Shown here: positions 1 through 64,000 of the stretch, piece after piece
Numbering within the stretch: the stretch's first letter is position 1
Layout of the letters: every line of letters begins with the position of its first letter
The notes under the pieces: generated by a model
Told to the model about the DNA's origin: nothing
What the model saw: only the letters and a program-made list of their open reading frames with translations
The model's database searches: none
Assembly: GCA_035331565.1 (NCBI GenBank)
Contig: DAOLKO010000004.1
Location: forward strand, 239,802-303,801
Source of the DNA: Blastocatellia bacterium
Lineage (GTDB): Bacteria > Acidobacteriota > Blastocatellia > RBC074
Direction: 5' to 3'
Length of the DNA: 64,000 nucleotides
Program-made: the position numbers and the translations under genes

Positions 1-420
1 CAATCATCAATCGCCTGCCGAACAGCGTCGGCTTTCTCGGCATTTTCCGTCGAATAGTAAGCGCGGCCTCCCGCCGGGCCGTAATGTTCCGAGATGAAGC
101 CCAACGCGCCTTCCAACCCATTGAGCAGCGCCAACACTTGTTCCGCCGGCGACGCGGCTTCGGCAATCACGGCGCTGTACACCTTTCGTAACCGCGTGAA
201 TCGCGGCGGTCGGTTGATTTCCAAATAAGCTTTGTTGAGCACGAAGGCGTAATGCTGAAAGTCGTTGGCGACGACGCGCAATCCCAGCCGCTTGAACATT
301 CGCCCGACCGCGCCGGTTCCGGCAAAGAGGTCACAAGCCGTCTGCTCGTCGCCTTCGCGGACTTCGCGCCAGACTTGTTCAATGAAAGGAAGCAGCGAAT
401 GTTTGGAGCCGATATAGTTC
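1..420 (-). CDS. N6-adenine DNA methyltransferase, D12 class (N-terminal ~140 aa; gene runs off window start)
   Basis: Reverse-strand translation from ATG at 420-418 reads MNYIGSKHSLLPFIEQVWREV...DLFAGTGAVGRMF. The YIGSK N-terminus and the FxGxG SAM-binding motif I are typical of Dam/D12-family type II m6A MTases. There is no stop before position 1. Confidence 0.5.
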
Positions 421-429
421 ATGCGGCTG

Positions 430-1542
430 CTACTCGTCTCCGAAAGAAATGCCCAAATCACGTGCCGCCTGAATAACATCGTAATCGGTGGGGACTTGTT
501 TGCGTTCTCTGACGGCGCTTTCCAGCGGAACGGTAATAATGGAAGAAGCCTGGTGAGCGACCATCACGTTGTATTCGCCGCGTTCGATGGCTTGGACGGC
601 AGCACAACCGAAACGGGTGGAGAGCAAACGATCCGCCGGCGTGGGCTGTCCGCCGCGCTGCAAGTGGCCAAGCATCAGCGAGCGCGTTTCGTAGCCGGTC
701 AATCGTCCCAGGTCTTTGGCCAGCAGTTCGGCGATGCCGCCCAGTCGCCGGGGTTCGCCTTCTACGTAAGGGTCTTGATAAGTCAACTCGCCACCGACCG
801 CATGCGCGCCTTCGGCGGCGACTATCACCGCGAACTTGCGTTTGTGCTGCCAGCGTTCGTGCAGCTTTTCGGCGATGGCTTCCAGGTTGAAAGGAATTTC
901 CGGGATCAGGATCACGTCCGCCGCACCGGCCACACCGGAATACAGCGCAATCCAGCCGGCATTGCGTCCCATCACTTCGACGATCATCACGCGCTCATGC
1001 GATTCGGCGGTGGCATGGACTTTATCAATCGCTTCGGTGGCGGTGGTGACGGCAGTGCTGAAACCGAAGGTCATCTCGGTCGCCATCAAATCGTTATCAA
1101 TGGTTTTGGGAACGCCGACAACGGGAATGCCTTTTTGCGCCAAGTCGTTGGCGATGGTCAGCGTGCCGTCGCCACCGATGACGATCAGCGCGTCGAGTTT
1201 TAGCTGGTGAAAGGCTTCGACGACTTGCGCTGAGATGTCCACCTCTTTCACTTTGCCGTTTTCGTTGATTTTCAGTCGGAAAGGATTGCCGCGATTGGAC
1301 GTGCCGAGAATGGTTCCACCGCGATAAATGATGCCACGAACATCGTGGGTATTGAGCCGGTGAATGCGTTCAGGATGCAGTAGTCCTTCAAAGCCCTTTT
1401 CGATGCCGCAAACTTCCCAGCCGCGATTGAGCGCACTGATGACTACAGCGCGAATAACCGCATTCAAGCCGGGACAATCGCCGCCCCCGGTGACTACGCC
1501 GATTTTTTTGAAGGAAGATACTTCGTTGGAGTTCTCTGCCAT
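430..1542 (-). CDS. pfkA: 6-phosphofructokinase (ATP- or PPi-dependent)
   Basis: 370 aa ORF. N-terminus IGVVTGGGDCPGLNAVIRAVV plus the GGDGS / MGR motifs are characteristic of the PFK-A family. Confidence 0.85.
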   Translation of the reverse strand: MAENSNEVSSFKKIGVVTGGGDCPGLNAVIRAVVISALNRGWEVCGIEKGFEGLLHPERIHRLNTHDVRGIIYRGGTILGTSNRGNPFRLKINENGKVKEVDISAQVVEAFHQLKLDALIVIGGDGTLTIANDLAQKGIPVVGVPKTIDNDLMATEMTFGFSTAVTTATEAIDKVHATAESHERVMIVEVMGRNAGWIALYSGVAGAADVILIPEIPFNLEAIAEKLHERWQHKRKFAVIVAAEGAHAVGGELTYQDPYVEGEPRRLGGIAELLAKDLGRLTGYETRSLMLGHLQRGGQPTPADRLLSTRFGCAAVQAIERGEYNVMVAHQASSIITVPLESAVRERKQVPTDYDVIQAARDLGISFGDE

Positions 1543-54767: not shown

Positions 54768-55748
54768 TCAACCGGCTGCGGCTGGCTGACAATCCTGGCT
54801 GATGAGAGCGGCGGCCAGCAATGGGATCATCAATTCGTGATGTCCTGTGATGCCGTAGCCTTTCCCGGCTCCGTTGGCCACGGGGCGGCGCACGACATTG
54901 GTTTGCGGGCGGTAATGTTGCAGGAAGTCGAAATTCGCGGTGGTGAAATCCTGAAGCGAATGCCCCAGGTTGCGCACGACCGTGACGGCTTTCAAAAAGA
55001 TTTCCGGCAGCGTCACCGCCGAACCCAGGTTCAGATAAACGCCGCCGCCGTCCAATCCGCGAACCAGCGAAGTGAAAAGTTTGAAGTCGCGGTAACTGGC
55101 CGCGCCCAGCGCCGCGCCGTCGGCGTGCGGGTGAATGTGAATGATGTCAGTGCCGATGGTGATGTGCGCCGTCACAGGCACGCACAGTTTGTAAGCTTCG
55201 TGCAGCAGCGAGAATTCGCCGTGCGGGGGCTGCAGTTCAACCAAAAATTGGCCGACCGCTTCGCCGATGCCGCAATCTTCGGCAGCACCGCGTTTGATGG
55301 CCTGATTCAACAGGCGTCCGGTTTCTTCGGCCATTCCAAACGCGCCGGAACCGAGTGCGCTGTCCACGTCTTCCGAAGTCCAACCGGCCAGCGCAATCTC
55401 GAAATCGTGAATAACGCCGGAACCGTTGGTTGCCAGCGCCGTGACGAAACCGCGCCGCATCAAGTCAATCAGCACGGGAGCTAACCCGGTTTTGATGACG
55501 TGGCCGCCGAATCCCCAAATGATGGCGCGGCCTTTGGCTTTGGCTTCGATGATGGCAGCCACCACAGCGCGCAGGCTTTCCGCCGCCAATAGATTCGGCA
55601 GCGAATCCAGCAACGCGACGGCGGCGCGCGCCTGTTCGTCGGTCAGCGGTTTGGCAAAATCGCGCACGGTCACTTTGCTCGGTCTTTCGTGAAGCGAGTA
55701 AGTGGCGATGCGGGAAAACTCAATCGGGTCTTGGTTGTAAATGGACAT
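54768..55748 (-). CDS. deoxyhypusine synthase-like (DHS-like NAD-binding fold) protein
   Basis: IIWGFGGHVIKTGL...ATNGSGVIHDFEIA and LDGGGVYLNLGSAVTLPE resemble DHS/homospermidine-synthase family motifs. Start taken at MSIYNQDPIEF. Confidence 0.4.
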   Translation of the reverse strand: MSIYNQDPIEFSRIATYSLHERPSKVTVRDFAKPLTDEQARAAVALLDSLPNLLAAESLRAVVAAIIEAKAKGRAIIWGFGGHVIKTGLAPVLIDLMRRGFVTALATNGSGVIHDFEIALAGWTSEDVDSALGSGAFGMAEETGRLLNQAIKRGAAEDCGIGEAVGQFLVELQPPHGEFSLLHEAYKLCVPVTAHITIGTDIIHIHPHADGAALGAASYRDFKLFTSLVRGLDGGGVYLNLGSAVTLPEIFLKAVTVVRNLGHSLQDFTTANFDFLQHYRPQTNVVRRPVANGAGKGYGITGHHELMIPLLAAALISQDCQPAAAG

Positions 55749-55814
55749 TGCGCCGCTTGTTATCGCAGCGCCAAGTTGAAAGTCAAGACAGGAAAAATCC
55801 GGCAAGTCGAACGA

Positions 55815-55952
55815 TCTATAACCTTCAAGAAAATGTTTTCCACAAAGCCACACGAAGCTTCACGAAGAAAAACAACAATCATTTGAGTACTCCCTTCGTG
55901 TTTTCTTCGTGCGGCTTCGTGGAAGGAAAATGTTTTTCTTGATGTCTATAGA
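55815..55952. repeat. MITE-like palindromic element, copy C (CACGAAG-motif family)
   Basis: TCTATAACCTTCAAGAAAATGTTTTCCACAAAGCCACACGAAGCTTCACGAAG...CCCTTCGTGTTTTCTTCGTGCGGCTTCGTGGAAGGAAAATGTTTTTCTTGATGTCTATAGA: about 55-bp inverted arms. It sits at the left edge of the defence island. Confidence 0.65.
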
Positions 55953-56062
55953 ACGCCGCCGAATCGGTCAGTCTGACGAATTCGCCTTTCTCGATTTCGC
56001 GTGGTAGTCTCTGCCCCGTTTTGCTCACCCGCCAGTGATGGCAACTCCTTTTTGAAGGTTCA

Positions 56063-57262
56063 ATGATGGAAGATTTTTCGGCAAACGCATCCGCGCTTGG
56101 ATACTTTTATCAGTCTCGCTACGCCCTGTTTTTGCTGCTTTCGCGTGCAGAGGCGGATGCGGAACTCTGCGTCGAGCGGCTGGACGATATTTCTTTCGAG
56201 CGCGACGGCAGCGCCATCGAATTGCTGCAAACCAAACATCACATCAAAGCCACGGCCAGCCTGTCGGACGCCAGCACCGCGCTTTGGAAAACTTTGCGCG
56301 TGTGGAGCGCGGCATTGGTCGAAAACAAAATCCGTCCGGGCGAAACCATCCTGACGCTGGTCACCACTGGACGCGCGCCCAAAGATTCCGCCGCCGCCAA
56401 ATTGCGCCCGCACCCAACGCGCGACCGCGACCACCAAGCGGCGTTGAAGATTCTGCGCGAAGTCGCAGACCAATCCGACAGCCGAACGAACCGTCCGGCT
56501 TACGAAGCCTTTCGCAATCTTTCCGACCGCCAGCAAAGCGAACTGGTAATGAGCATTCAATTGCTGGATGCCTCGCCGAACATCCTGGACACGGGCGGGC
56601 GCATTCTGGATCAACTGCGTCTTAGCACTCGCCCACAGTTTCTGGAAGCTGTTTACGAGCGCATTGAAGGCTGGTGGTTCAATCGGCTGATTCAGCATCT
56701 TTCCGCCGATTCCACCGCGCCGATTCTTTACAGAGAGTTGCTGGATCAGATCAACGACCTTCAAGAGCAATACCACACGGACAATTTGCCGATTGAGTTT
56801 CTGCCGATTGAGTTTCTAGATGCCATCGCGCCGGACGAGCAAAAGCTAGGCGCGAAAGAACGGCTCTTCATCGAACAGCTTCGGCTGGTGGCAGTCGCCG
56901 CGCCGCGCATTCGCAAAGCGATCAACGATTATTACCGCGCGTTTCAACAACGCTCCAAATGGGTGCGCGAAGATTTACTGCTGGTGGGCGAACTGGAAAC
57001 TTACGAACGGCGGCTGGTGGACGAATGGGAAAGACTGTTTGAACGAATGAAAGAAAACCTCGGCGACCACGCGGAGGAAACCACGCTTCAACACGAAGGC
57101 CGCGCGCTGTTCAATGCCGTCGAAGACCTGGAACTGAACATTCGCCCGCGCTGCAACGAACCCTACATAATGCGCGGCAGCTTTCACCTGCTGGCCAATC
57201 AACTGCGCGTCGGCTGGCACGCGGACTTCGTTCAACGGCTCAATCAATTACTGACAACCTGA
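56063..57262 (+). CDS. lmuA: Lamassu/ABC-3C effector: Cap4-like (DUF4297-type) PD-(D/E)XK nuclease N-terminal domain + helical C-terminal domain
   Basis: N-terminus ...LGYFYQSRYALFLLL...VERLDDISFE...IELLQTKHH carries D/E-x-K nuclease residues in a DUF4297-like arrangement. 399 aa; first gene of a three-gene cluster. Confidence 0.5.
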   Translation: MMEDFSANASALGYFYQSRYALFLLLSRAEADAELCVERLDDISFERDGSAIELLQTKHHIKATASLSDASTALWKTLRVWSAALVENKIRPGETILTLVTTGRAPKDSAAAKLRPHPTRDRDHQAALKILREVADQSDSRTNRPAYEAFRNLSDRQQSELVMSIQLLDASPNILDTGGRILDQLRLSTRPQFLEAVYERIEGWWFNRLIQHLSADSTAPILYRELLDQINDLQEQYHTDNLPIEFLPIEFLDAIAPDEQKLGAKERLFIEQLRLVAVAAPRIRKAINDYYRAFQQRSKWVREDLLLVGELETYERRLVDEWERLFERMKENLGDHAEETTLQHEGRALFNAVEDLELNIRPRCNEPYIMRGSFHLLANQLRVGWHADFVQRLNQLLTT

Positions 57263-57267
57263 AGCAT

Positions 57268-57357
57268 CTTTGGAGTGCGACGGCGTCGGCGTCGCTTTGG
57301 TAGTCCTTCTTGTCGAACGACTATGAAAGCTACGCCAACGCCGTCGCACTCCAAAGG
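57268..57357 (+). other. 25-bp inverted repeat hairpin between lmuA and lmuC
   Basis: CTTTGGAGTGCGACGGCGTCGGCGT ... ACGCCAACGCCGTCGCACTCCAAAGG, within the operon spacer. Confidence 0.45.
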
Positions 57358-57374
57358 CTCAATCTGAAAACACC

Positions 57375-57860
57375 GTGAATTCCTGGGAAACAAGACCGAC
57401 TGAAATTGCGCATTTGCTGAACCCTGCGTTTTGCGGCGAATTGCTGCGCCGCGTCATTCGCACGCACAACGCCGTCAGCCCGCGACTGATTCCGTTTCCG
57501 CTGCTGTTTTTGGCGCTGCCGGTGGTGCTGCATCGCGAAACGCGCGAAAGCATTTCCGCTACGACCAAAGAGCAAATGCACGTCTGGCTGCAAGATCGTC
57601 AGCACCTGCGTTTGGGCTTTGCCGAACGGGCGAAGAATCTGGTTCCGATCACTCGCGAAGCCATTGCCTTTCTGCTGCAAATCGGCGCAATTGCCGTGGA
57701 CGAACGCGCGGGCGTGCGGTTGACGCGCTACGTGGCGCGGCAGGTTCCGGTCAGCGAGGAAATCACCGATTGCCAAAAGAAGGCTGAAATTCTGGGGCGC
57801 TGGTTCGCCCGCGCCGGTGCGCCGGCGGCGATTTATACGATGTGGGGAGTGAAACCTTAA
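57375..57860 (+). CDS. lmuC: Lamassu/ABC-3C middle component (small helical protein)
   Basis: 161 aa, alpha-helical, no enzymatic motif. It ends 5 nt before the ABC ATPase start. Confidence 0.4.
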   Translation: MNSWETRPTEIAHLLNPAFCGELLRRVIRTHNAVSPRLIPFPLLFLALPVVLHRETRESISATTKEQMHVWLQDRQHLRLGFAERAKNLVPITREAIAFLLQIGAIAVDERAGVRLTRYVARQVPVSEEITDCQKKAEILGRWFARAGAPAAIYTMWGVKP

Positions 57861-57864
57861 CGCG

Positions 57865-59817
57865 ATGCAAATTCTGGAAATTGTTCTTTACGGACGGCAA
57901 GGCCAAAAGCGCGTGCTGCCGCTCCAGGCCGGCAAGACCAACATCATCACGGGCGGTTCGGCAACGGGCAAATCCGCGCTGATTCAAATCGTTGATTACT
58001 GCCTGGGGCGCGGCGAATGCACCGTCCCCGAAGGCGTCATTCGCGAATCCGTCTCCTGGTTCGGGCTGCGTTTGCAGTTCGCGTCGGGACAGGTTTTCGT
58101 TGCGCGGCAAAATCCTCCCAAAGGCCGCACGACGACCAACCGCGCTTACTTTGAAGAAGGCACAATCGTTCCCAGCCCCGACGCGCCGCCCGCGCAGCCG
58201 AACACCGTTATCGAAGCTCTGGAAGATTTGCTGACCGACAAACTCGGCATTGCGCCGAACATGAACTTCCCCGCGCCCGGCCAAACACGTTCGCCGCTGG
58301 CGGCCAACATTCGCCACGCTTTGGTTTATTGTTTTCAACAGCAAAGCGAAATCGCCTCGAAAGACGTGCTTTTTCACGGCCAGTATGACGGCTGGGTCGC
58401 GCAAGCCATCAAAGACACCATCGCCTATTTCCTCGGTGCGATTCAGGAAGACCGTCTGGCGCTTGAACAGGAACTTGCCCGCGCACGCCGCGAACTCAAA
58501 CGCGCCGAACAATCCCTGCGCGAAGCCGAAGCCATCACCGGCGACGGCGTCAGCAAAGCCGGCAGCCTGTATCAGGAAGCCCGTCATGTCGGCCTGCTTC
58601 CGGATGAAACGATTCCCGAAAACCTGGAAGTCTTACGCACGAGATTGCAGGAAGTGCTGCGTTGGACGCCGGAGGCCGACAGCTTTCCCGGTTCGGAACG
58701 GCTGACGCAGTTTCAGGAAGAAGTCCGCACCTTGCAGATTCAGGCGCGCGAAAAAGCAGACGCCGCGAACGCCGCGCGCAGCTTCGCGCAGGAAGCCGAA
58801 GGTTACCTTGCCGAGGCCCGACAGCAGGAACTGCGACTGGAATCCATCGGCCTGTTCGACGCCGGCAAACAAAACGCCCACGCCTGCCCTGTTTGCACGC
58901 AGGAACTGGACGTGCCTGTTCCGACGGCGGAAGCCATGCGCCGTTCGCTGGAACAACTGAAAGCCAATCTGGAAAATACCGTCCGCGAACGCCCACGCTT
59001 GCGCCGGCACATCGAAAGTCTGGAAAAGGAACGCGAAGAAATCCGCCAACGCATTCGCGAAAAGAACGAAGACATACGCAGCCTGCTCGCGGAACAGCAA
59101 GCCGCCGCCCAATTGCGCGAACTGAACGTTCGCCGTGGCAGAGTGATTGGCCGCATCAGCCTGTGGCTGGAAAGCGTGGACACCGCCGACACCACTTCGC
59201 AACTGCGAGAAGACGTGCGCCAAAAACACGAACGCGTCGCCACACTGGAACAACAACTGGAAGACGGCGAGAAACAGGAGCGGCTGTTTTCCATCCTGAA
59301 CCGCATCGGCGTGCAGATGACCGATTGGGCGAACAATCTGGAATTGGAACACAGCCGCAATCCGGTGCGGCTGGATTTATCGAAGCTGACCGTGCTGGTG
59401 GATCGCGACGACCGCCCCATCCCGCTCAACCACATGGGCAGCGGCGCGAATTGGGTGGGCTTTCATTTGATTGCGCACTTGGCGTTGCACAGGCATTTCG
59501 TCCAACACGGACGGCCTGTTCCCGCGTTTCTGTTTCTCGATCAGCCTTCGCAGGTTTATTACCCGCCCGACAAAGACACGGAGTTGCAAGGTTCGCTGGC
59601 CGGCATCGGTGACGAAGATCAATTGGCCGTGTCGCGTATGTACAACCTAATTTTCGATGTGGTCGAAAACCTGTCGCCGAACTTTCAGGTGGTCGTCACG
59701 GATCACGCGGATTTGGCTGAGGCACGTTTTCAATCTGTGATTGCCGAACGCTGGCGCGGCGGTCAGGCGCTGGTTCCGCAGGACTGGATCAATGTCGCCG
59801 AACCGCCGGAAGCGTAG
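57865..59817 (+). CDS. lmuB: Lamassu/ABC-3C SMC-like ABC ATPase with coiled-coil and zinc hook (LmuB/DdmC-like)
   Basis: Walker A ITGGSATGKSALIQIVDYCL. Long coiled coil carrying CPVC (HACPVCTQ), a Rad50-like zinc hook. C-terminal FLFLDQPSQVYYP Walker B/D-loop, as in DUF3732. Confidence 0.6.
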   Translation: MQILEIVLYGRQGQKRVLPLQAGKTNIITGGSATGKSALIQIVDYCLGRGECTVPEGVIRESVSWFGLRLQFASGQVFVARQNPPKGRTTTNRAYFEEGTIVPSPDAPPAQPNTVIEALEDLLTDKLGIAPNMNFPAPGQTRSPLAANIRHALVYCFQQQSEIASKDVLFHGQYDGWVAQAIKDTIAYFLGAIQEDRLALEQELARARRELKRAEQSLREAEAITGDGVSKAGSLYQEARHVGLLPDETIPENLEVLRTRLQEVLRWTPEADSFPGSERLTQFQEEVRTLQIQAREKADAANAARSFAQEAEGYLAEARQQELRLESIGLFDAGKQNAHACPVCTQELDVPVPTAEAMRRSLEQLKANLENTVRERPRLRRHIESLEKEREEIRQRIREKNEDIRSLLAEQQAAAQLRELNVRRGRVIGRISLWLESVDTADTTSQLREDVRQKHERVATLEQQLEDGEKQERLFSILNRIGVQMTDWANNLELEHSRNPVRLDLSKLTVLVDRDDRPIPLNHMGSGANWVGFHLIAHLALHRHFVQHGRPVPAFLFLDQPSQVYYPPDKDTELQGSLAGIGDEDQLAVSRMYNLIFDVVENLSPNFQVVVTDHADLAEARFQSVIAERWRGGQALVPQDWINVAEPPEA

Positions 59818-59824
59818 CTAAGGT

Positions 59825-59974
59825 GAAGCCTGTGCAAATTGAAGTCTCACGCAAAGCCGCGAAGACGCAAAGACTGGAAGGGAAAAGGACTCACCTAAAC
59901 CTCTTTCTTCTTTTTCTCTTTGCGGCTTTGCGTGAACCTGTTGATTCCATTCAAGTTTAATTTGCACAGGCTTC
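59825..59974. repeat. nested palindromic element between convergent defence operons
   Basis: Outer inverted repeat GAAGCCTGTGCAAATTGAAGT / ACTTCAAGTTTAATTTGCACAGGCTTC and inner inverted repeat TCACGCAAAGCCGC / GCGGCTTTGCGTGA, separated by a CT-rich core. Confidence 0.5.
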
Positions 59975-59998
59975 AGTTATGGTGCTGAAGTTTCGGCT

Positions 59999-62173
59999 TT
60001 ACAGCACGATGTCTTCGAGGTCTTGCAGCGGATGATAGTCAAACATCTCAACCGGCAATATCGCTGCTTCGCCTGCCAAACGACGATTGGGACGACGGCG
60101 TCCGAGGTTCACTCTCATCAGGGGATCACATTCGCTTAAAGGTTTGGCATCGTCGCCGTAGGTGAATAGAAGCCCTGTCAGCCGCTCGATTTCGCCGATT
60201 TTGACTTGATAGTGCTGATAAGGGCCGAAAGGATCGGTCACGGCTTCGATTCCGAAGCGGGCAATCACTTCGTCCTGGCTGGCGATGTAAGCGGTCGCAA
60301 ACAAGTCGCCATTGGATTTCAGCGCGGCGACTACCTTCCAGTATTGCAACGGATACTGAATGCCTTTGTACACAGGATCGCCGGGATCAAGCACAGGGCC
60401 TGTAATCACCTGCGCGTCGAAGTTTCCTTCCAAAATGCTCGTCTCCAAAATGTACCTTTCGATGCCCTGCCAGATTTCTTTATTTTGATTGAACTTCTCG
60501 TGCTGCGGCGTGCAGTTGGTCCAATGACAGGTGTCTCCGGCGGATTGAAGCGCTTCTACCGGAGTCTTGCCGAATTCCAGGTCTTCGCGCCGCGTCAGAT
60601 GTCCCCGATCGAACTTGTTGTTCGTGTAATACCAATTTTGGATTTGGTATTCCCCCTTGATGCGCGGATCAACGCGCCATACATCGGCTGGGCGGCTCAT
60701 TTCGTAACGTTCGGCAAACCGCAGATTGGCGGCGCTGTAAATCGCGAACTTGCGTTTGGCGTGCATCACCACGCTGTAGTTGTTGTAATGCAGTAAGTAT
60801 TCGTCCGGCGCGGCGATCAGACTCACGGCTTCGGCTTCCAGCGCGTCCGTCAATGTCGGGAAGTTGACCTTCTTTGCGCCCGCTCCGAGGAACTCCGGGT
60901 TGTAGCCCTGGCGCTTGCTGTAATCCGAATCGAACGGCGCATCAAACCTGGGCGCACGAGCGGCGTCATTGCGTTCCAGCATGAACCCAGCCGACTCGCG
61001 CGCCGTCCGCGCCACCGAAGCGCCCACAGTGGAAACGACTCCAGCGGCGTCAAGATTGAGAGTGACTTCCACGGGAACTGTGATTGTTTGCGTGTTGCTC
61101 ATAACTTTGATCTCCGTTTTTACTGAGGGTTGAACTTTGTTGTTTCCGGCGCAAGCTCTGCGCGCTTCTCCAATGCGCGCGCCGGCCGGAGTCGCCGCAA
61201 ACAAGGGTTGCAGCAAAGGATGATCGGGAAGCGCCTGCTTCAACGTTTGCGCGATGCGGCTGGCGCGAATGCCTTCGTTGGCGATCCATTTAATGTCACG
61301 CTCGTCCATGGTGTCTGGATCGAAATCGCGCCCGTCCACAGTTTGAATAACGCCGTTGCGCCTTTCAGGCACGCCGCTGTGATGCAGCGCCACCACGTAC
61401 CAATCGTTGTCGAAAACCGGTGCCCCGGAAGAGCCTGGAAGCGTGTCGGTGGAGTACCAGAGCACATCATCTGCACGTTTGATCAGGCGGTTTTCGCGCA
61501 CACACAGTTGCTTTCGTTCACCTGAAGGATGCTGAACAATGGTCAGCCATTCGCCTTCCAATGCCTTGCCCGGCACGGCCAGCAAGGGCAAAACCCCATA
61601 CTCCGAAAGCAGGGTTTCGCCGTCGCGCGAACGCTCTTCGACGGCCACCACTGAAAAATCCAGTGCCGGAGAGGTGAAAAAAAGTCTTTGCGGTGCCAAC
61701 GCAAACCGAACCGGCCCGACGGGGTTGTCGTCCAAATCGGTTTCGTAATGAAACTGCGCTTCGGAAGCAATCGCGGCGGACGCATTGCCGAAGACATGGT
61801 TGTTGGTAATCAGCACGCCCGGCGCGATCAGAAACCCGGTTCCCCAACCCAGGTGCGCGCCGGACGGATTGCGAATCTCGATGCGGGCAACGGCTCTGAC
61901 GGCCACTTCGCCGCGCGCCAGATAGCTTGCGGGTTGCAATTCGTTCCCGTCCAGCAACCGTTCCAGCGTCTGATCGGCAAGCCGGCGATCTCCCAAAGCT
62001 TCCGTCAGGAAGAATTGCCGCGACCGCACCTGCTCGCCGGTAACAAATTCTTTCGGAAGCTTGTCTTTTCTTTCGGCAATCAGGTCATCAATTTCCAGAC
62101 CTGCCGCCCGCCGCATCGCTTTTCGGATTTGAGACTCGATGATGCTCATAAAACGGCCCACGGTATTAGACAA
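59999..62173 (-). CDS. fusion protein: trypsin-like serine protease domain + DNA/RNA non-specific (EndoG/Serratia-type) nuclease domain
   Basis: N-terminal half has chymotrypsin-fold motifs GWGTGFLIAPGVLITNNHVF (His) and TLPGSSGAPVF (GDSGGP-like Ser). C-terminal half has the NUC beta-beta-alpha-Me motif FDRGHLTRREDL and downstream Asn. 724 aa. Confidence 0.6.
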   Translation of the reverse strand: MSNTVGRFMSIIESQIRKAMRRAAGLEIDDLIAERKDKLPKEFVTGEQVRSRQFFLTEALGDRRLADQTLERLLDGNELQPASYLARGEVAVRAVARIEIRNPSGAHLGWGTGFLIAPGVLITNNHVFGNASAAIASEAQFHYETDLDDNPVGPVRFALAPQRLFFTSPALDFSVVAVEERSRDGETLLSEYGVLPLLAVPGKALEGEWLTIVQHPSGERKQLCVRENRLIKRADDVLWYSTDTLPGSSGAPVFDNDWYVVALHHSGVPERRNGVIQTVDGRDFDPDTMDERDIKWIANEGIRASRIAQTLKQALPDHPLLQPLFAATPAGARIGEARRACAGNNKVQPSVKTEIKVMSNTQTITVPVEVTLNLDAAGVVSTVGASVARTARESAGFMLERNDAARAPRFDAPFDSDYSKRQGYNPEFLGAGAKKVNFPTLTDALEAEAVSLIAAPDEYLLHYNNYSVVMHAKRKFAIYSAANLRFAERYEMSRPADVWRVDPRIKGEYQIQNWYYTNNKFDRGHLTRREDLEFGKTPVEALQSAGDTCHWTNCTPQHEKFNQNKEIWQGIERYILETSILEGNFDAQVITGPVLDPGDPVYKGIQYPLQYWKVVAALKSNGDLFATAYIASQDEVIARFGIEAVTDPFGPYQHYQVKIGEIERLTGLLFTYGDDAKPLSECDPLMRVNLGRRRPNRRLAGEAAILPVEMFDYHPLQDLEDIVL

Positions 62174-62179
62174 GATGAC

Positions 62180-62887
62180 TCAGCCTTTGCGGCTCTTGAC
62201 GGCTTTCTTGGCGCTTTTTTTCTTTGCAGGCGGAGTCGCGCCAAGAGGATTGCCGTTGTTGTCCGTCTTGAAGGTTTGCGATTGAAAGGCGAGGAAAAAC
62301 GCGCGCCATTTGTCGCCGGGGTATTGAATGAAAAGCGCGCCGTCCTGAAACGCGCCGTTGTCTTTCTTCCATTTCCCGGAATTCCCCTGGTTCATGTGGA
62401 TGTCGTGAATGCCGTTGCCCGGCTTGAACTTGAAGTATTTGTCGGCCTTGTTGTTTTCAGGCCCCCATTTTTCGCCGAAGGCATAAAGCATGGAGCCGGG
62501 TTCGGCCAAAGCTTTGATGATGGCGTCTTCGAGTTTGTCTTTGAGGTCATTGTCCGGGCCTTCGGATTCAGGCGGAACAGGTTTCATATTGGCGGGATTG
62601 ACCAACCCTCCGCGAACGTAATCCTGAGCTAGCCCGCCGGCTTTCGAGGCGAGCTTTTTATAACCGGCGTTCAGGGCGCTCAGCCCTGTTTTCAATTCGG
62701 CGGGAAGTGTCGTCGAGGTGGCATACAACAAATCGGACGGCGCGTTCTCGGCGGCGGACTTTACGTTCACCGCTATTCGGTACAACGTGTTGCCTGCTTT
62801 GATCAGAATTTGATAGTGGTCATCGTCGGCATTCCTCAAATGACCGATCACAGTTCCTTTGAGGACACCGTAGTTTTTGAGTGGCAT
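62180..62887 (-). CDS. YukJ-like (DUF2278) protein
   Basis: N-terminus MPLKNYGVLKGTVIGHLRNADDDHYQILIKAGNTLYRIAVNVKS...LLY resembles the DUF2278/YukJ pattern. Lys-rich C-terminal tail. 7 nt upstream of the protease-nuclease gene. Confidence 0.4.
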   Translation of the reverse strand: MPLKNYGVLKGTVIGHLRNADDDHYQILIKAGNTLYRIAVNVKSAAENAPSDLLYATSTTLPAELKTGLSALNAGYKKLASKAGGLAQDYVRGGLVNPANMKPVPPESEGPDNDLKDKLEDAIIKALAEPGSMLYAFGEKWGPENNKADKYFKFKPGNGIHDIHMNQGNSGKWKKDNGAFQDGALFIQYPGDKWRAFFLAFQSQTFKTDNNGNPLGATPPAKKKSAKKAVKSRKG

Positions 62888-63046
62888 GTTGAAATCCTCC
62901 TATGGCAATTAGCGCCTGACAGAGCGTGCTTGTTTGTGAATCTCGGCGGAGACAACTGAGCGAGAACAAAAAGAACGCCGGGAATATACTCAAACTTCCG
63001 GCAAAGACAATGAAAATCTTCGGATGCGCGCGGCCAAGCCCGAAAA

Positions 63047-64000
63047 TCATTCCGGCAATCGCAAACCGCGTCTTGCATCCTTGCGACGAACTCGAAGCAC
63101 GGCAATCTTGGTCGAATGATTGAACGGCGCTGGATCCGTCACGGCAGCCGCCACGCGCGTGTTTTCGTACCCGGTGAAGTCTTCGGCCACCGGGATCAAC
63201 TCCTCAATCGTCAGATAGCCGTCCGCGCAAACGTCTTCCAGCAAACGCAAATACTCCGCGCCGCCGACAAAGAGCGCATTGTTGACCGCCACCAGCCTGC
63301 CGCCATCGGCCACCAGCGGGCGGACTTTGTTAATCAACCGCACGTAATTCTTTTCGGCATCCACCAAGCCTTTGCCGGTGGCGGCGAAAAATGGCGGATC
63401 AAGCAACACGCAATCGAACAACTCTCCGGCGCGAATCATACGGCTGACCAACGGCCAGAAATCCCCGGCTTGAAAGTCCTGTTTGCGAATGGGAAAGCCG
63501 TTCAATGTGTAAGAAGTTTTCGCCACGTTCAGAAACGTGCGGTTCAAATCCAGATGCACGACTTGTGAAGCGCCTGCCGCCGTTGCCGCCACGCCCAGGC
63601 TGCCGGTGTAAGCAAAGGTATTGAGCACGCGCTTGCCGCTGAGGTTTTGCAAAATCCAGCCGCGTAAGCTTCGAGTGTCTAGGTAAAGGCTGGCATCGCG
63701 GTTCAGCAGCAATTCGACCGCGTACCAGACGCCGTGTTCGCGGATTTTGCGTGCATGGGCGTCGCCAGCCAGCAAAACGCCGTTGCGCGCACCGGCATCG
63801 GCGGCATGATGCGATTTCAAAAGCACCGCATTCAGCCACGACAATCGGGTTTGATAAAACGCCTGCGCGGCTATGACGGCGGCGCGGCGTTGTTCAGGCG
63901 TTTCGGCGTAATCGTGCAGCACCAGCGTTTGCGCATAAAGGTCAACCGCCAGCGTCGGCCAGCCTTCGGCAAAACCGTTGAACAATCGAAATGCCGCTTC
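63047..64000 (-). CDS. class I SAM-dependent rRNA methyltransferase (RlmI/RlmK-like), partial, runs off window end
   Basis: VLNTFAYTGSLGVAA (SAM motif I) and LLDPPFF (motif IV). The ORF is open to position 64000. Confidence 0.6.
   Translation of the reverse strand, partial: EAAFRLFNGFAEGWPTLAVDLYAQTLVLHDYAETPEQRRAAVIAAQAFYQTRLSWLNAVLLKSHHAADAGARNGVLLAGDAHARKIREHGVWYAVELLLNRDASLYLDTRSLRGWILQNLSGKRVLNTFAYTGSLGVAATAAGASQVVHLDLNRTFLNVAKTSYTLNGFPIRKQDFQAGDFWPLVSRMIRAGELFDCVLLDPPFFAATGKGLVDAEKNYVRLINKVRPLVADGGRLVAVNNALFVGGAEYLRLLEDVCADGYLTIEELIPVAEDFTGYENTRVAAAVTDPAPFNHSTKIAVLRVRRKDARRGLRLPE

Follow-up and report, generated by a model that had tools for sequence, protein, structure and literature searches.

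NucA, the Serratia nuclease and EndoG belong to one His-Me (beta-beta-alpha-metal) family of non-specific nucleases, Endonuclease_NS; NucA and the Serratia nuclease are secreted. Among serine proteases, the staphylococcal V8 and Spl enzymes have a chymotrypsin fold with an intact His-Asp-Ser triad, and HtrA2/Omi is another, 'apoptotic', protease of the Trypsin_2 family. In bacterial gasdermins and CalpL/Craspase-type systems a protease controls the release of a lethal effector; there, the protease and the effector are separate proteins, and activation proceeds via a defined sensor. ExeM of Shewanella, a secreted and membrane-anchored enzyme, places a lamin-tail domain (LTD) and an OB-fold beside a non-specific nuclease of the EEP type. 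Coupling of Endonuclease_NS to a peptidase domain was already noted by Jablonska et al. 2017 (PMC5714182), who read it as virulence-related; this is a single-sentence mention that does not cover localisation, gene neighbourhood, DUF2278 or experiments.

Here we analyse a locus of a Blastocatellia bacterium, a soil acidobacterium, lying within a 64,000-nucleotide stretch of contig DAOLKO010000004.1 (the window), where a gene of the DUF2278 family precedes a gene whose product fuses a serine protease to a nuclease; the family of such fusions is annotated only as 'DNA/RNA non-specific endonuclease'. The fusion shares DRGH, the metal-binding Asn and the Glu with the NucA group, and the chymotrypsin fold and intact triad with V8/Spl. 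Unlike NucA and the Serratia nuclease, it has no signal peptide (by a heuristic) and carries an N-terminal domain and a serine protease; unlike V8/Spl, its protease is, by the same heuristic, non-secreted and is covalently joined to a nuclease; unlike HtrA2/Omi, it has no PDZ domains. The likeness to gasdermin and CalpL/Craspase-type systems is conceptual; the only homology found with PADLOC models is a generic trypsin match. As in NucA/NuiA, a small gene product is linked to the nuclease, but in contrast to the dedicated NuiA the DUF2278 partner is missing from most members of the fusion family. The arrangement of ExeM is paralleled by DUF2278, which is weakly OB-like, together with LTD and Endonuclease_1 in cis, or with the Trypsin-Endonuclease_NS protein in trans, although DUF2278 is a different family with its own invariant polar cluster. 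An EndoG-like nuclease joined to a Trypsin_2 protease also echoes two mitochondrial death factors that have been discussed separately (PMC5982838).

Results

Domains of the fusion protein

The features of the locus are collected in Table 1. A first-pass annotation, made from the sequence alone, had described a 724-aa protease-nuclease fusion, and Pfam bore this out: Trypsin_2 (residues 111-263, E 6.5e-19, 69.5 bits against a cut-off of 27.6, full profile 1-144) and Endonuclease_NS (residues 456-671, E 6.3e-40, 137.6 bits against a cut-off of 23) both score above gathering. The motifs it had quoted, NNHVF, GSSGAP and DRGH, are present, and the residues H126 (NNHVF), D172 and S249 (GSSGAP) of the protease, as well as D522-R523-G524-H525 (DRGH 522-525), N562 and E572 of the nuclease, are invariant in 17 diverse homologues; across 73 sequences, conservation of the GSSGAP block is 90% or higher. 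By manual motif alignment, DRGH, N562 and E572 presumably correspond to H89, N119 and E127 of the Serratia nuclease (Serratia numbering). The closest solved relatives of the protease domain are Staphylococcus SplE/SplD and V8 glutamyl endopeptidases, and the best solved match of the nuclease domain is Anabaena NucA (2o3b/1zm8, E 1e-7; EndoG, ~3e-4). We take 2o3b to be the NucA-NuiA complex.

Homologues of the fusion begin at ATG 62149 ('MSII...'), which gives 716 aa instead of 724, and comparison with them suggests that this ATG is probably the true start of the gene. The N-terminal domain has no Pfam match, and its conservation climbs from residue 52. We considered that this region might be a shared adaptor and ruled this out, because its 92 aa, searched against 1.84 billion representatives, matched 50 clusters, all of them full-length members of the fusion family or fragment-like shorter proteins. 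The linker is poorly conserved and gapped (conservation 0.26-0.41), with pLDDT below 50 at residues 334-416 in the AF2 model, and the C-terminal tail is shared with nuclease-only homologues. The full-length AF2 model (pLDDT 62, pTM 0.45) is too poor for inter-domain contacts or autoinhibition to be read from it.

The first-pass annotation had allowed that the fusion might be a routine secreted nuclease. None of 120 fusion homologues, however, has a Sec-like signal peptide, as judged by a heuristic that looks for an N-terminal run of 12 aa whose mean Kyte-Doolittle hydropathy is at least 2.0, which argues against routine secretion; on this hydropathy heuristic the protein is predicted to be cytoplasmic.

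Table 1. Features of the DUF2278-fusion locus and of the adjoining Lamassu operon (positions in the window)
Feature	Position	Strand	Details
Hairpin	55812-55955		upstream of LmuA
LmuA	56063-57262		PADLOC 5e-65, Pfam CTD7
Hairpin	57263-57361		between LmuA and LmuC
LmuC/MC3	57375-57860		PADLOC 1.7e-15, Pfam MC3
LmuB	57865-59817		PADLOC 4.2e-141; DUF3732 among Lamassu Pfam matches
Long nested hairpin	59824-59975	.	inverted repeats I1 + I2; MFE -72.7 kcal/mol, z = -7.3
Protease-nuclease fusion gene	59999..62173	-	724 aa from TTG 62173
C-terminal tail	60002..60118	-	residues 686-724; basic RRR patch, then semi-conserved Y..L..L[D/E]DI end
NucA/EndoG-type His-Me non-specific nuclease domain	60119..60946	-	residues ~410-685
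Variable linker, predicted disordered	60947..61183	-	residues ~331-409
Chymotrypsin-fold serine protease domain	61184..61888	-	residues ~96-330; triad H126/D172/S249
N-terminal helical domain, family-specific	61889..62149	-	residues ~9-95; helices 11-92 (AF2)
DUF2278/YukJ-family gene	62180..62887	-	235 aa; first gene of putative operon
Sigma-70-like promoter match	62983..63010	-	TTGTCT-16-TATATT, 9/12; ~95 nt 5' of DUF2278 start

The DUF2278 protein

The 235-aa product of the gene directly upstream, on the same strand, is indeed YukJ/DUF2278-like, as had been proposed: PF10042 matches residues 1-212 (E 2.2e-67, 227.4 bits against a cut-off of 25) over nearly the full profile (1-205 of 206). 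In the AF2 model (pLDDT 77) residues 218-235 are disordered and Lys-rich, and the N-terminal half of the protein is weakly OB-like. Conservation among the best 120 homologues, which are mostly unlabelled metagenome proteins with a few named ones from Blastocatellia/Acidobacteriota, is 63-82%, and 22 polar residues are invariant, including H24, D89, R92, H161, H164, N166, Q167, D182, Q202, Q204 and D209. A sequence search against the PDB returned insignificant matches only, and no likeness to solved inhibitor folds was detectable.

DUF2278 has thousands of members, among them B. subtilis YukJ, for which upregulation in stationary phase has been called likely (bioRxiv 10.64898/2026.04.20.719615). 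Members often carry an LTD, which the window protein does not, and the family is also found fused in cis to another non-specific nuclease, in the order Endonuclease_1 + DUF2278 + LTD. We found no functional study of DUF2278/PF10042/YukJ in the literature, and in the full texts searched DUF2278 is mentioned once, in one paper.

Layout of the locus

The DUF2278 gene and the fusion gene lie on the same strand, 6 nt apart when counted from the TTG and 30 nt from the ATG, with DUF2278 upstream, and form a putative two-gene operon. The single promoter match found compares with 1.3 expected by chance, so it is a mere consensus match and weak evidence. The neighbouring Lamassu system, correctly recognized in the first reading of the sequence, is complete (the effector LmuA, LmuC and the SMC-like ATPase LmuB all matched in PADLOC and Pfam) and makes up a separate operon convergent with the pair. 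The palindromes that were said to bracket the pair do not do so. One hairpin sits at its 3' side, between the convergent stop codons of LmuB and the fusion gene, and is possibly a bidirectional terminator or a REP/MITE-like element; at the 5' side (62850-63150) no inverted repeat was found, and the other two hairpins, placed around LmuA, flank or punctuate Lamassu rather than the pair. An Rfam scan of 55700-63200 gave no riboswitch or leader, only miRNA-precursor models that match the long hairpins. The other flanking genes checked, an rRNA methyltransferase-like gene and a GSU2086-family gene, are of the housekeeping type, and the 'defence island' claimed for the window is therefore Lamassu alone.

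Distribution of the pair

The fusion family is large and spans at least 6 phyla, with a patchy distribution that includes plasmids. In unbiased genome and metagenome scans DUF2278 was found upstream of the fusion in only 3 of 115 evaluable loci, the remaining 112 being without it. The pair occurs in the same order on 3 acidobacterial and 5-6 cyanobacterial contigs, with gaps of 6-67 nt and different flanks. In a tree of the fusion, the paired members all group in a single clade, interspersed with solo ones; the DUF2278 proteins with which they pair represent two subfamilies that diverged deeply. The DUF2278 proteins closest to that of the window, at 73-79% identity, occur without the fusion, and the P0123 contigs, which end at the DUF2278 gene, are uninformative downstream. 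Plasmids carry both families, but not adjacent to each other: in Bacillus cereus-group megaplasmids they are more than 280 kb apart, and 4 annotated plasmid regions had no informative neighbours. In phage collections no homologue of the fusion or of DUF2278 was found.

Recurrence of the operonic pair in two phyla and amid differing flanks, together with the cis fusion to Endonuclease_1, supports a non-random link between DUF2278 and nucleases. An obligate two-gene module is not supported. The proposal of such a module thus survives in part: the pairing recurs in two phyla and co-occurrence elsewhere holds in one clade, but it is absent for most of the fusion family, an outcome that the first-pass annotation had itself named as refuting the module.

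Gene neighbourhoods and defence context

All-versus-all ORF clustering of 80 genome loci revealed no conserved partner of the fusion; the recurrent neighbours were shadow ORFs or lineage-specific housekeeping genes (ABC transporter, TypA/BipA, short-chain dehydrogenases, acyl-CoA dehydrogenase, LysR). The 116 ORFs flanking 18 fusion loci were likewise mostly housekeeping genes, with few defence-model matches by raw count (SspH, mad3/mad8, a UvrD-like GajB model and PDC-S48). A Crp-type HTH was counted 5 times among these neighbours; on follow-up it was present among the ten immediate-neighbour ORFs only in L116, a locus with several similar-sized ORFs in a row, and is thus not a consistently adjacent regulator. 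An MBL-fold gene downstream of the acidobacterial DUF2278 in L083 proved to be a generic MBL hydrolase. At L081, the one related pair recovered with full surroundings, Lamassu adjacency is absent; this pair and that of Dendronalium sit among housekeeping genes. Some cyanobacterial-type loci lie amid conflict-type genes (EAD10, HNH, VMAP-C, YhaV toxin).

Against PADLOC-DB v2.0, DUF2278 had no match, and the fusion matched RT-Protease_XI alone, weakly and through its trypsin domain (E 1e-5, 22.8 bits). Literature searches on Trypsin_2 with Endonuclease_NS, and on non-specific endonucleases with trypsin-like domains in anti-phage defence, returned no functional study. We agree that, as far as PADLOC-DB v2.0 shows, the architecture is absent from described anti-phage systems. 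The conflict or defence role suggested for it fared worse, given the mostly housekeeping flanks at the 18 loci, the lack of phage homologues and the absence of Lamassu at L081. The genes are linked, yet nothing shows an anti-phage system, and that interpretation of the pair is not supported.

Discussion

We tentatively favour the view that the fusion is a self-contained nuclease that lies latent in the cytoplasm and is gated by the protease it carries, DUF2278 being an optional accessory associated with nucleases. Since most members of the fusion family have no partner gene, control of a potentially lethal nuclease must be intrinsic. The protein consists of an N-terminal helical domain, a V8/Spl-like protease, a disordered linker of ~75 aa, a NucA/EndoG-type nuclease and a conserved tail. 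The protease may gate the nuclease by cutting the linker or the tail, in cis or between copies, once set off by, for instance, infection, stress or stationary phase, and bulk degradation of nucleic acids would result. DUF2278, with its OB-like N-terminal half and invariant His/Asp/Asn/Gln cluster, would be a nuclease-associated module and a facultative accessory recruited by one clade of the fusion family. Nucleic acid or a small ligand is its most likely binding partner, and it would tune or target the nuclease; an obligatory function as immunity protein is unlikely.

A more far-reaching version, which we regard as doubtful, makes DUF2278/YukJ a regulatory or sensor subunit of cytoplasmic non-specific His-Me nucleases and the fusion a single-protein, protease-gated suicide effector across many bacterial phyla. 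DUF2278 would then act in trans on the Trypsin-Endonuclease_NS protein and in cis on Endonuclease I, and the fusion, used in abortive infection or programmed cell death, would join the bacterial relatives of the mitochondrial death factors EndoG and HtrA2/Omi.

A possible, though not a likely, account is that the fusion breaks down nucleic acids and proteins in stationary phase or starvation, serving salvage or turnover, with DUF2278 co-operating as a nucleic-acid-processing enzyme or binder of the same pathway. The housekeeping surroundings, locally conserved within some lineages, are consistent with this, as are the reported stationary-phase behaviour of YukJ and the fact that LTD/OB modules accompany DNA-scavenging nucleases such as ExeM. 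The strong conservation of DUF2278 and its invariant polar residues are also more in keeping with an enzyme or a ligand site than with an immunity protein that evolves fast. Scavenging nucleases are, however, normally secreted, whereas the fusion proteins have no signal peptides; a non-specific nuclease left unrestrained in the cytoplasm would poison the cell and would still need strict regulation; and a patchy spread that extends to plasmids is unusual for core metabolism.

It is rather unlikely that the pair is a two-gene abortive-infection system, in which DUF2278 would sense infection or restrain the effector and the protease-nuclease would kill the infected cell. Non-specific nucleases that are cytoplasmic and have their catalytic residues intact are typical abortive-infection effectors, the operonic pair recurs with different flanks and adjoins Lamassu in the window, conflict-type genes occur near some cyanobacterial-type loci, and the phyletic spread is patchy and includes plasmids. 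Against this stand the near-universal absence of DUF2278 from the unbiased fusion loci (112 of 115), the scarcity of defence-model matches around the 18 loci, the housekeeping setting of the Dendronalium and L081 pairs, the latter without Lamassu, and the lack of any PADLOC-DB v2 system match beyond the generic trypsin one.

We consider improbable a toxin-immunity pair of the NucA/NuiA or polymorphic-toxin type, with DUF2278 as a dedicated inhibitor and the fusion perhaps exported non-classically as an interbacterial toxin. In its favour, Anabaena NucA, the nearest match of the nuclease, comes with a dedicated inhibitor, any nuclease in the cytoplasm has to be restrained, and DUF2278 is tightly linked upstream; yet DUF2278 has no detectable similarity to solved inhibitors, evolves slowly, unlike a fast-evolving small gene, and has close relatives that occur solo and so is not always linked to the fusion. 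That the two genes are unrelated and adjacent by chance in the window lineage is hardly credible: the families mostly occur apart, as in the megaplasmids, but two phyla and two DUF2278 subfamilies show the pair in one order, on one strand and with a short gap, amid different flanks, and DUF2278 is independently fused in cis to another nuclease.

What is new here is what we infer about two little-studied families, DUF2278 and the protease-nuclease fusion. The gene order in two phyla and the domain fusion with non-specific nucleases provide a first functional lead for DUF2278, and the fusion offers a testable model of how cells can maintain a generic nuclease in the cytoplasm. Should the fusion be a starvation or turnover enzyme, the gain would be a modest one of annotation. 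If it is a protease-gated suicide nuclease, it would represent a compact, single-gene effector type for bacterial cell death or immunity, and would have implications for the bacterial origins of EndoG/HtrA-type death factors.

Domain organization of the protease-nuclease fusion

The first-pass annotation read two adjacent genes of the window as a candidate undescribed conflict module, and its domain assignments held. Pfam recognized DUF2278 in the upstream gene (Table), and Trypsin_2 (residues 111-263, E 6.5e-19) and Endonuclease_NS (residues 456-671, E 6.3e-40) in the fusion. Invariant positions in an alignment of 17 homologues (53-76% identity) included H126 (NNHVF), D172 and S249 (GSSGAP) of the protease triad and, in the nuclease, D522-R523-G524-H525, N562 and E572, consistent with a serine protease joined to an EndoG/Serratia-type nuclease. 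Since homologues begin at the position of an internal ATG (62149, 'MSIIESQI...'), the protein is probably 716 aa long, leaving an intergenic gap of ~30 nt. The host is a Blastocatellia (Acidobacteriota) MAG.

Boundaries of the parts were drawn from the conservation profile of 73 family members and the secondary structure of an AF2 model, which at full length was of too poor quality for judging autoinhibition. By sequence, the protease is nearest to staphylococcal SplE/SplD/V8 enzymes, and the nuclease to Anabaena NucA, with EndoG next. A search of 1.84 billion representative proteins with the N-domain matched only 50 clusters, all of them full-length fusion-family members or shorter, fragment-like proteins. 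No Sec-like hydrophobic N-terminus was found in 120 fusion homologues by a hydropathy heuristic, and, within the limits of that heuristic, we rejected the reading of the fusion as a routine secreted nuclease. In its mode of action the nuclease is predicted to resemble NucA, Serratia nuclease and EndoG; the fusion nevertheless appears to lack the secreted character of the NucA/Serratia type. Nuclease-only homologues (about 318 aa, about 50% identical to fusion residues 409-724) keep the same C-terminal tail, and their existence indicates that the protease is dispensable for this nuclease lineage. At six of these loci a small ORF of ~100 aa, which could be a partner, lies 80-190 nt downstream.

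Features of the window, the fusion protein and related loci
Feature	Location	Strand	Basis or remark
Long hairpin, upstream of LmuA	55812-55955		inverted-repeat search, Rfam scan
Lamassu / ABC-three-component system, complete	56063-59817	+	PADLOC-DB + Pfam
Long hairpin, between LmuA and LmuC	57263-57361		inverted-repeat search, Rfam scan
Nested hairpin, 150 nt, between convergent stops, downstream of LmuB	59824-59975		RNA fold z = -7.3
Fusion gene	59999-62173	-	ORF, 724 aa, TTG start
DUF2278 gene	62180-62887	-	ORF, 235 aa, Pfam DUF2278 E 2.2e-67
Fusion: N-domain, helical, family-specific	residues about 9-95		conservation profile + AF2
Fusion: protease	residues about 96-330		conservation profile + AF2
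Fusion: linker, variable, predicted disordered	residues about 331-409		conservation profile + AF2
Fusion: nuclease	residues about 410-685		conservation profile + AF2
Fusion: tail, basic patch then semi-conserved Y..L..L[D/E]DI end	residues 686-724		conservation profile + AF2
Nuclease-only homologues	L139-L160, e.g. L142 5013-5969		soil metagenome loci
Endonuclease_1 + DUF2278 + LTD proteins	P0254-P0260, P0271; L180 6001-7764		
Conflict-type neighbours	L085 3543-5782; L086 7209-7981 and 11208-12142; L088 7444-7751		
Solo DUF2278 arrangement	L082, L173, L174, L176, L177		acidobacterial contigs, some labelled Blastocatellia
MBL hydrolase/TIR-CHAT-NB-ARC-TPR entry	L083 8748-9683 and 16365-16714		

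Distribution and genomic surroundings

The family search gave 2227 matches, the best 120 of which all carry both domains, and a further 79 species-level genome loci encode the fusion, under the labels Pseudomonadota, Verrucomicrobiota, Planctomycetota, Cyanobacteriota, Acidobacteriota and Bacteroidota. Homologues (33-50% identity) on large plasmids of Sinorhizobium fredii NGR234 (symbiotic plasmid pNGR234a, NC_000914.2 484576-486507), Rhizobium, Nostoc and Bacillus are annotated solely as 'DNA/RNA non-specific endonuclease'. Clustering of all flanking ORFs revealed no conserved neighbour of the fusion; the neighbours that recur are lineage-specific housekeeping genes. Housekeeping also dominated a Pfam/PADLOC census of 116 ORFs round 18 fusion loci, with few matches to defence models. 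Cyanobacterial-type relatives, unlike proteobacterial loci, lie near conflict genes (EAD10 proteins, an HNH nuclease, VMAP-C proteins and a YhaV toxin preceded by a small ORF).

In the window, three plus-strand Lamassu genes, in the order LmuA (with a Pfam CTD7 C-terminal domain; 5e-65), LmuC (MC3; 1.7e-15) and LmuB (DUF3732; 4.2e-141), end at 59817 and are convergent with the pair, as had been noted. The system sits between housekeeping genes, and beyond it and the pair lie an rRNA methyltransferase-like and a GSU2086-family gene, both housekeeping-type. The claimed bracketing of the pair by palindromes did not hold up: a hairpin stands at its 3' side only, no inverted repeat was found in its 5' intergenic region, and the other two hairpins flank or interrupt Lamassu. 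All three are stable, about 100-150 nt long, share a related core CACG(C)AAAGCCGC... and matched only miRNA-precursor models in an Rfam E-value scan, marking them as long hairpins of a generic kind; their appearance suggests REP/MITE-like elements that accompany the Lamassu cassette. The only related pair recovered with its surroundings (contig L081) has wholly different flanks and no Lamassu. Lamassu and the palindromes look incidental to the pair.

Recurrence of the DUF2278-fusion pairing

Across recurring loci DUF2278 comes first, on the same strand, with a gap of 6-67 nt. Acidobacterial-type pairs are those of the window (L001), L002 (fusion 94% identical) and L081 (75%). In two cyanobacteria, Chamaesiphon (L054) and Dendronalium (L178/L179), as well as in metagenome contigs without a label (L085, L089 and probably L088), the partner is a 340-352-aa DUF2278 protein of cyanobacterial type with a lamin-tail domain (LTD). 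In L085 (107-1166) a frameshift splits it into ORFs of 137 and 207 aa, which may reflect a low-coverage assembly error (the contig name ends '3x') or a pseudogene. L002 (CAZRXE010000184.1) is labelled 'uncultured Heliomicrobium sp.' (Firmicutes), probably a binning or taxonomy error because its pair is 93-94% identical to that of the Blastocatellia MAG.

In two unbiased scans of genomes and metagenomes, DUF2278 lay directly upstream of the fusion in 3 of 115 evaluable loci (L002, L054, L089). Bacillus cereus-group megaplasmids carry both genes >280 kb apart. The near acidobacterial relatives of the window's DUF2278 (79% and 78% identity) are solo. They stand in a conserved arrangement that consists of a PQQ-dependent dehydrogenase (644 aa), DUF2278, a 308-312-aa protein, for which no Pfam/NCBIfam match was found, and Peptidase_A8 (signal peptidase II). 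Protein P0123 (80%) has the same upstream genes on contigs that stop at DUF2278; a relative at 75% has a different housekeeping context, and one at 73%, on contig L083, a generic MBL-fold hydrolase downstream. This hydrolase, 311 aa long and with Apyc1/RNase Z-like matches in Pfam that stay well under NCBIfam cut-offs, follows DUF2278 after 34 nt; a giant TIR-CHAT-NB-ARC-TPR protein is encoded 8 kb away.

A neighbour-joining tree of 73 fusion proteins places every paired fusion in a single clade, with solo members (L003, L004, L087, L090) scattered between them. On the partner side the branching differs from the fusion tree: the window's DUF2278 groups within solo acidobacterial proteins (73-79% identity), and its identity to the cyanobacterial partners is only 38-39%. 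The link therefore arose more than once or survived through partner replacement, and either scenario speaks for selection acting on the two together. We conclude that the pairing is not chance. Of the two-gene module, the recurrent same-order pairing in one clade stands, but with 112 of 115 loci lacking DUF2278 the pair is no obligate operon.

Possible role of DUF2278

Neither a solved-structure relative (by sequence search) nor a function (by literature search) was found for DUF2278. From Bacillus YukJ through to nuclease-fused DUF2278, 22 polar positions never vary, among them H24, N41, S44, D89, R92, N113, D114, H161, H164, N166, Q167, Q181, D182, Q202, Q204, T208 and D209, a set that would fit a catalytic or ligand/metal-binding site better than it would an immunity protein under rapid evolution. 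The strongest independent hint at function is a group of 583-593-aa proteins, sister to the cyanobacterial-type subfamily and without signal peptide, in which DUF2278 is fused to Endonuclease_1 (PF04231) and LTD, an architecture that appears undescribed. Endonuclease_1 is a non-specific His-Me nuclease different from Endonuclease_NS; its region here contains EHV.P, which we take to be the Endonuclease I catalytic motif. This ties DUF2278 to non-specific nucleases in cis as well as in trans. Many DUF2278 members carry LTD, which in bacteria goes with phosphoesterases and nucleases, as in ExeM, where it is combined with OB folds and a nuclease (PMC6085458).

Discussion

Our analysis establishes the fusion, at the level of sequence, as a predicted cytoplasmic protein whose protease and non-specific nuclease are both competent, and which is usually partnerless. 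Such a nuclease, we infer, must be latent, and, because the protease, linker, tail and N-domain are the family's sole common regulatory equipment, we propose protease-gated activation. After a trigger, the fusion's own protease would cleave the linker or tail, and the activated nuclease would degrade nucleic acids in bulk; in one clade DUF2278 would serve as a facultative helper, binding nucleic acid or a ligand and either tuning the nuclease or directing it to its target. We hold this picture tentatively.

As to outcome, turnover in stress or stationary phase seems rather unlikely; in its favour, B. subtilis YukJ is described as 'of unknown function' and 'likely upregulated in stationary phase' (bioRxiv 10.64898/2026.04.20.719615). 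Abortive infection we consider unlikely; no homologues of the fusion or DUF2278 were found in 50,697 phage records. Toxin-immunity, with DUF2278 as the suggested immunity partner, is improbable, as DUF2278 failed all feasible tests for a NuiA-like inhibitor.

The suggestion that the pair is undescribed among anti-phage systems stands in so far as PADLOC-DB v2 has no model for the fusion or DUF2278; the Endonuclease_NS and Trypsin_2 coupling itself was mentioned, in one sentence, and read as virulence-related by Jablonska et al. 2017 (PMC5714182). Our literature search found no experimental or neighbourhood study of it. What emerges is more ordinary than was proposed, being neither an obligate two-gene system nor set in a demonstrated defence context. 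It is most fairly described as known catalytic domains in an uncharacterised architecture, accompanied facultatively by a member of a family of unknown function. It still provides a concrete, testable new lead, in that DUF2278 would be a module associated with nucleases and the fusion a widespread protease-nuclease of the cytoplasm that has to stay latent.
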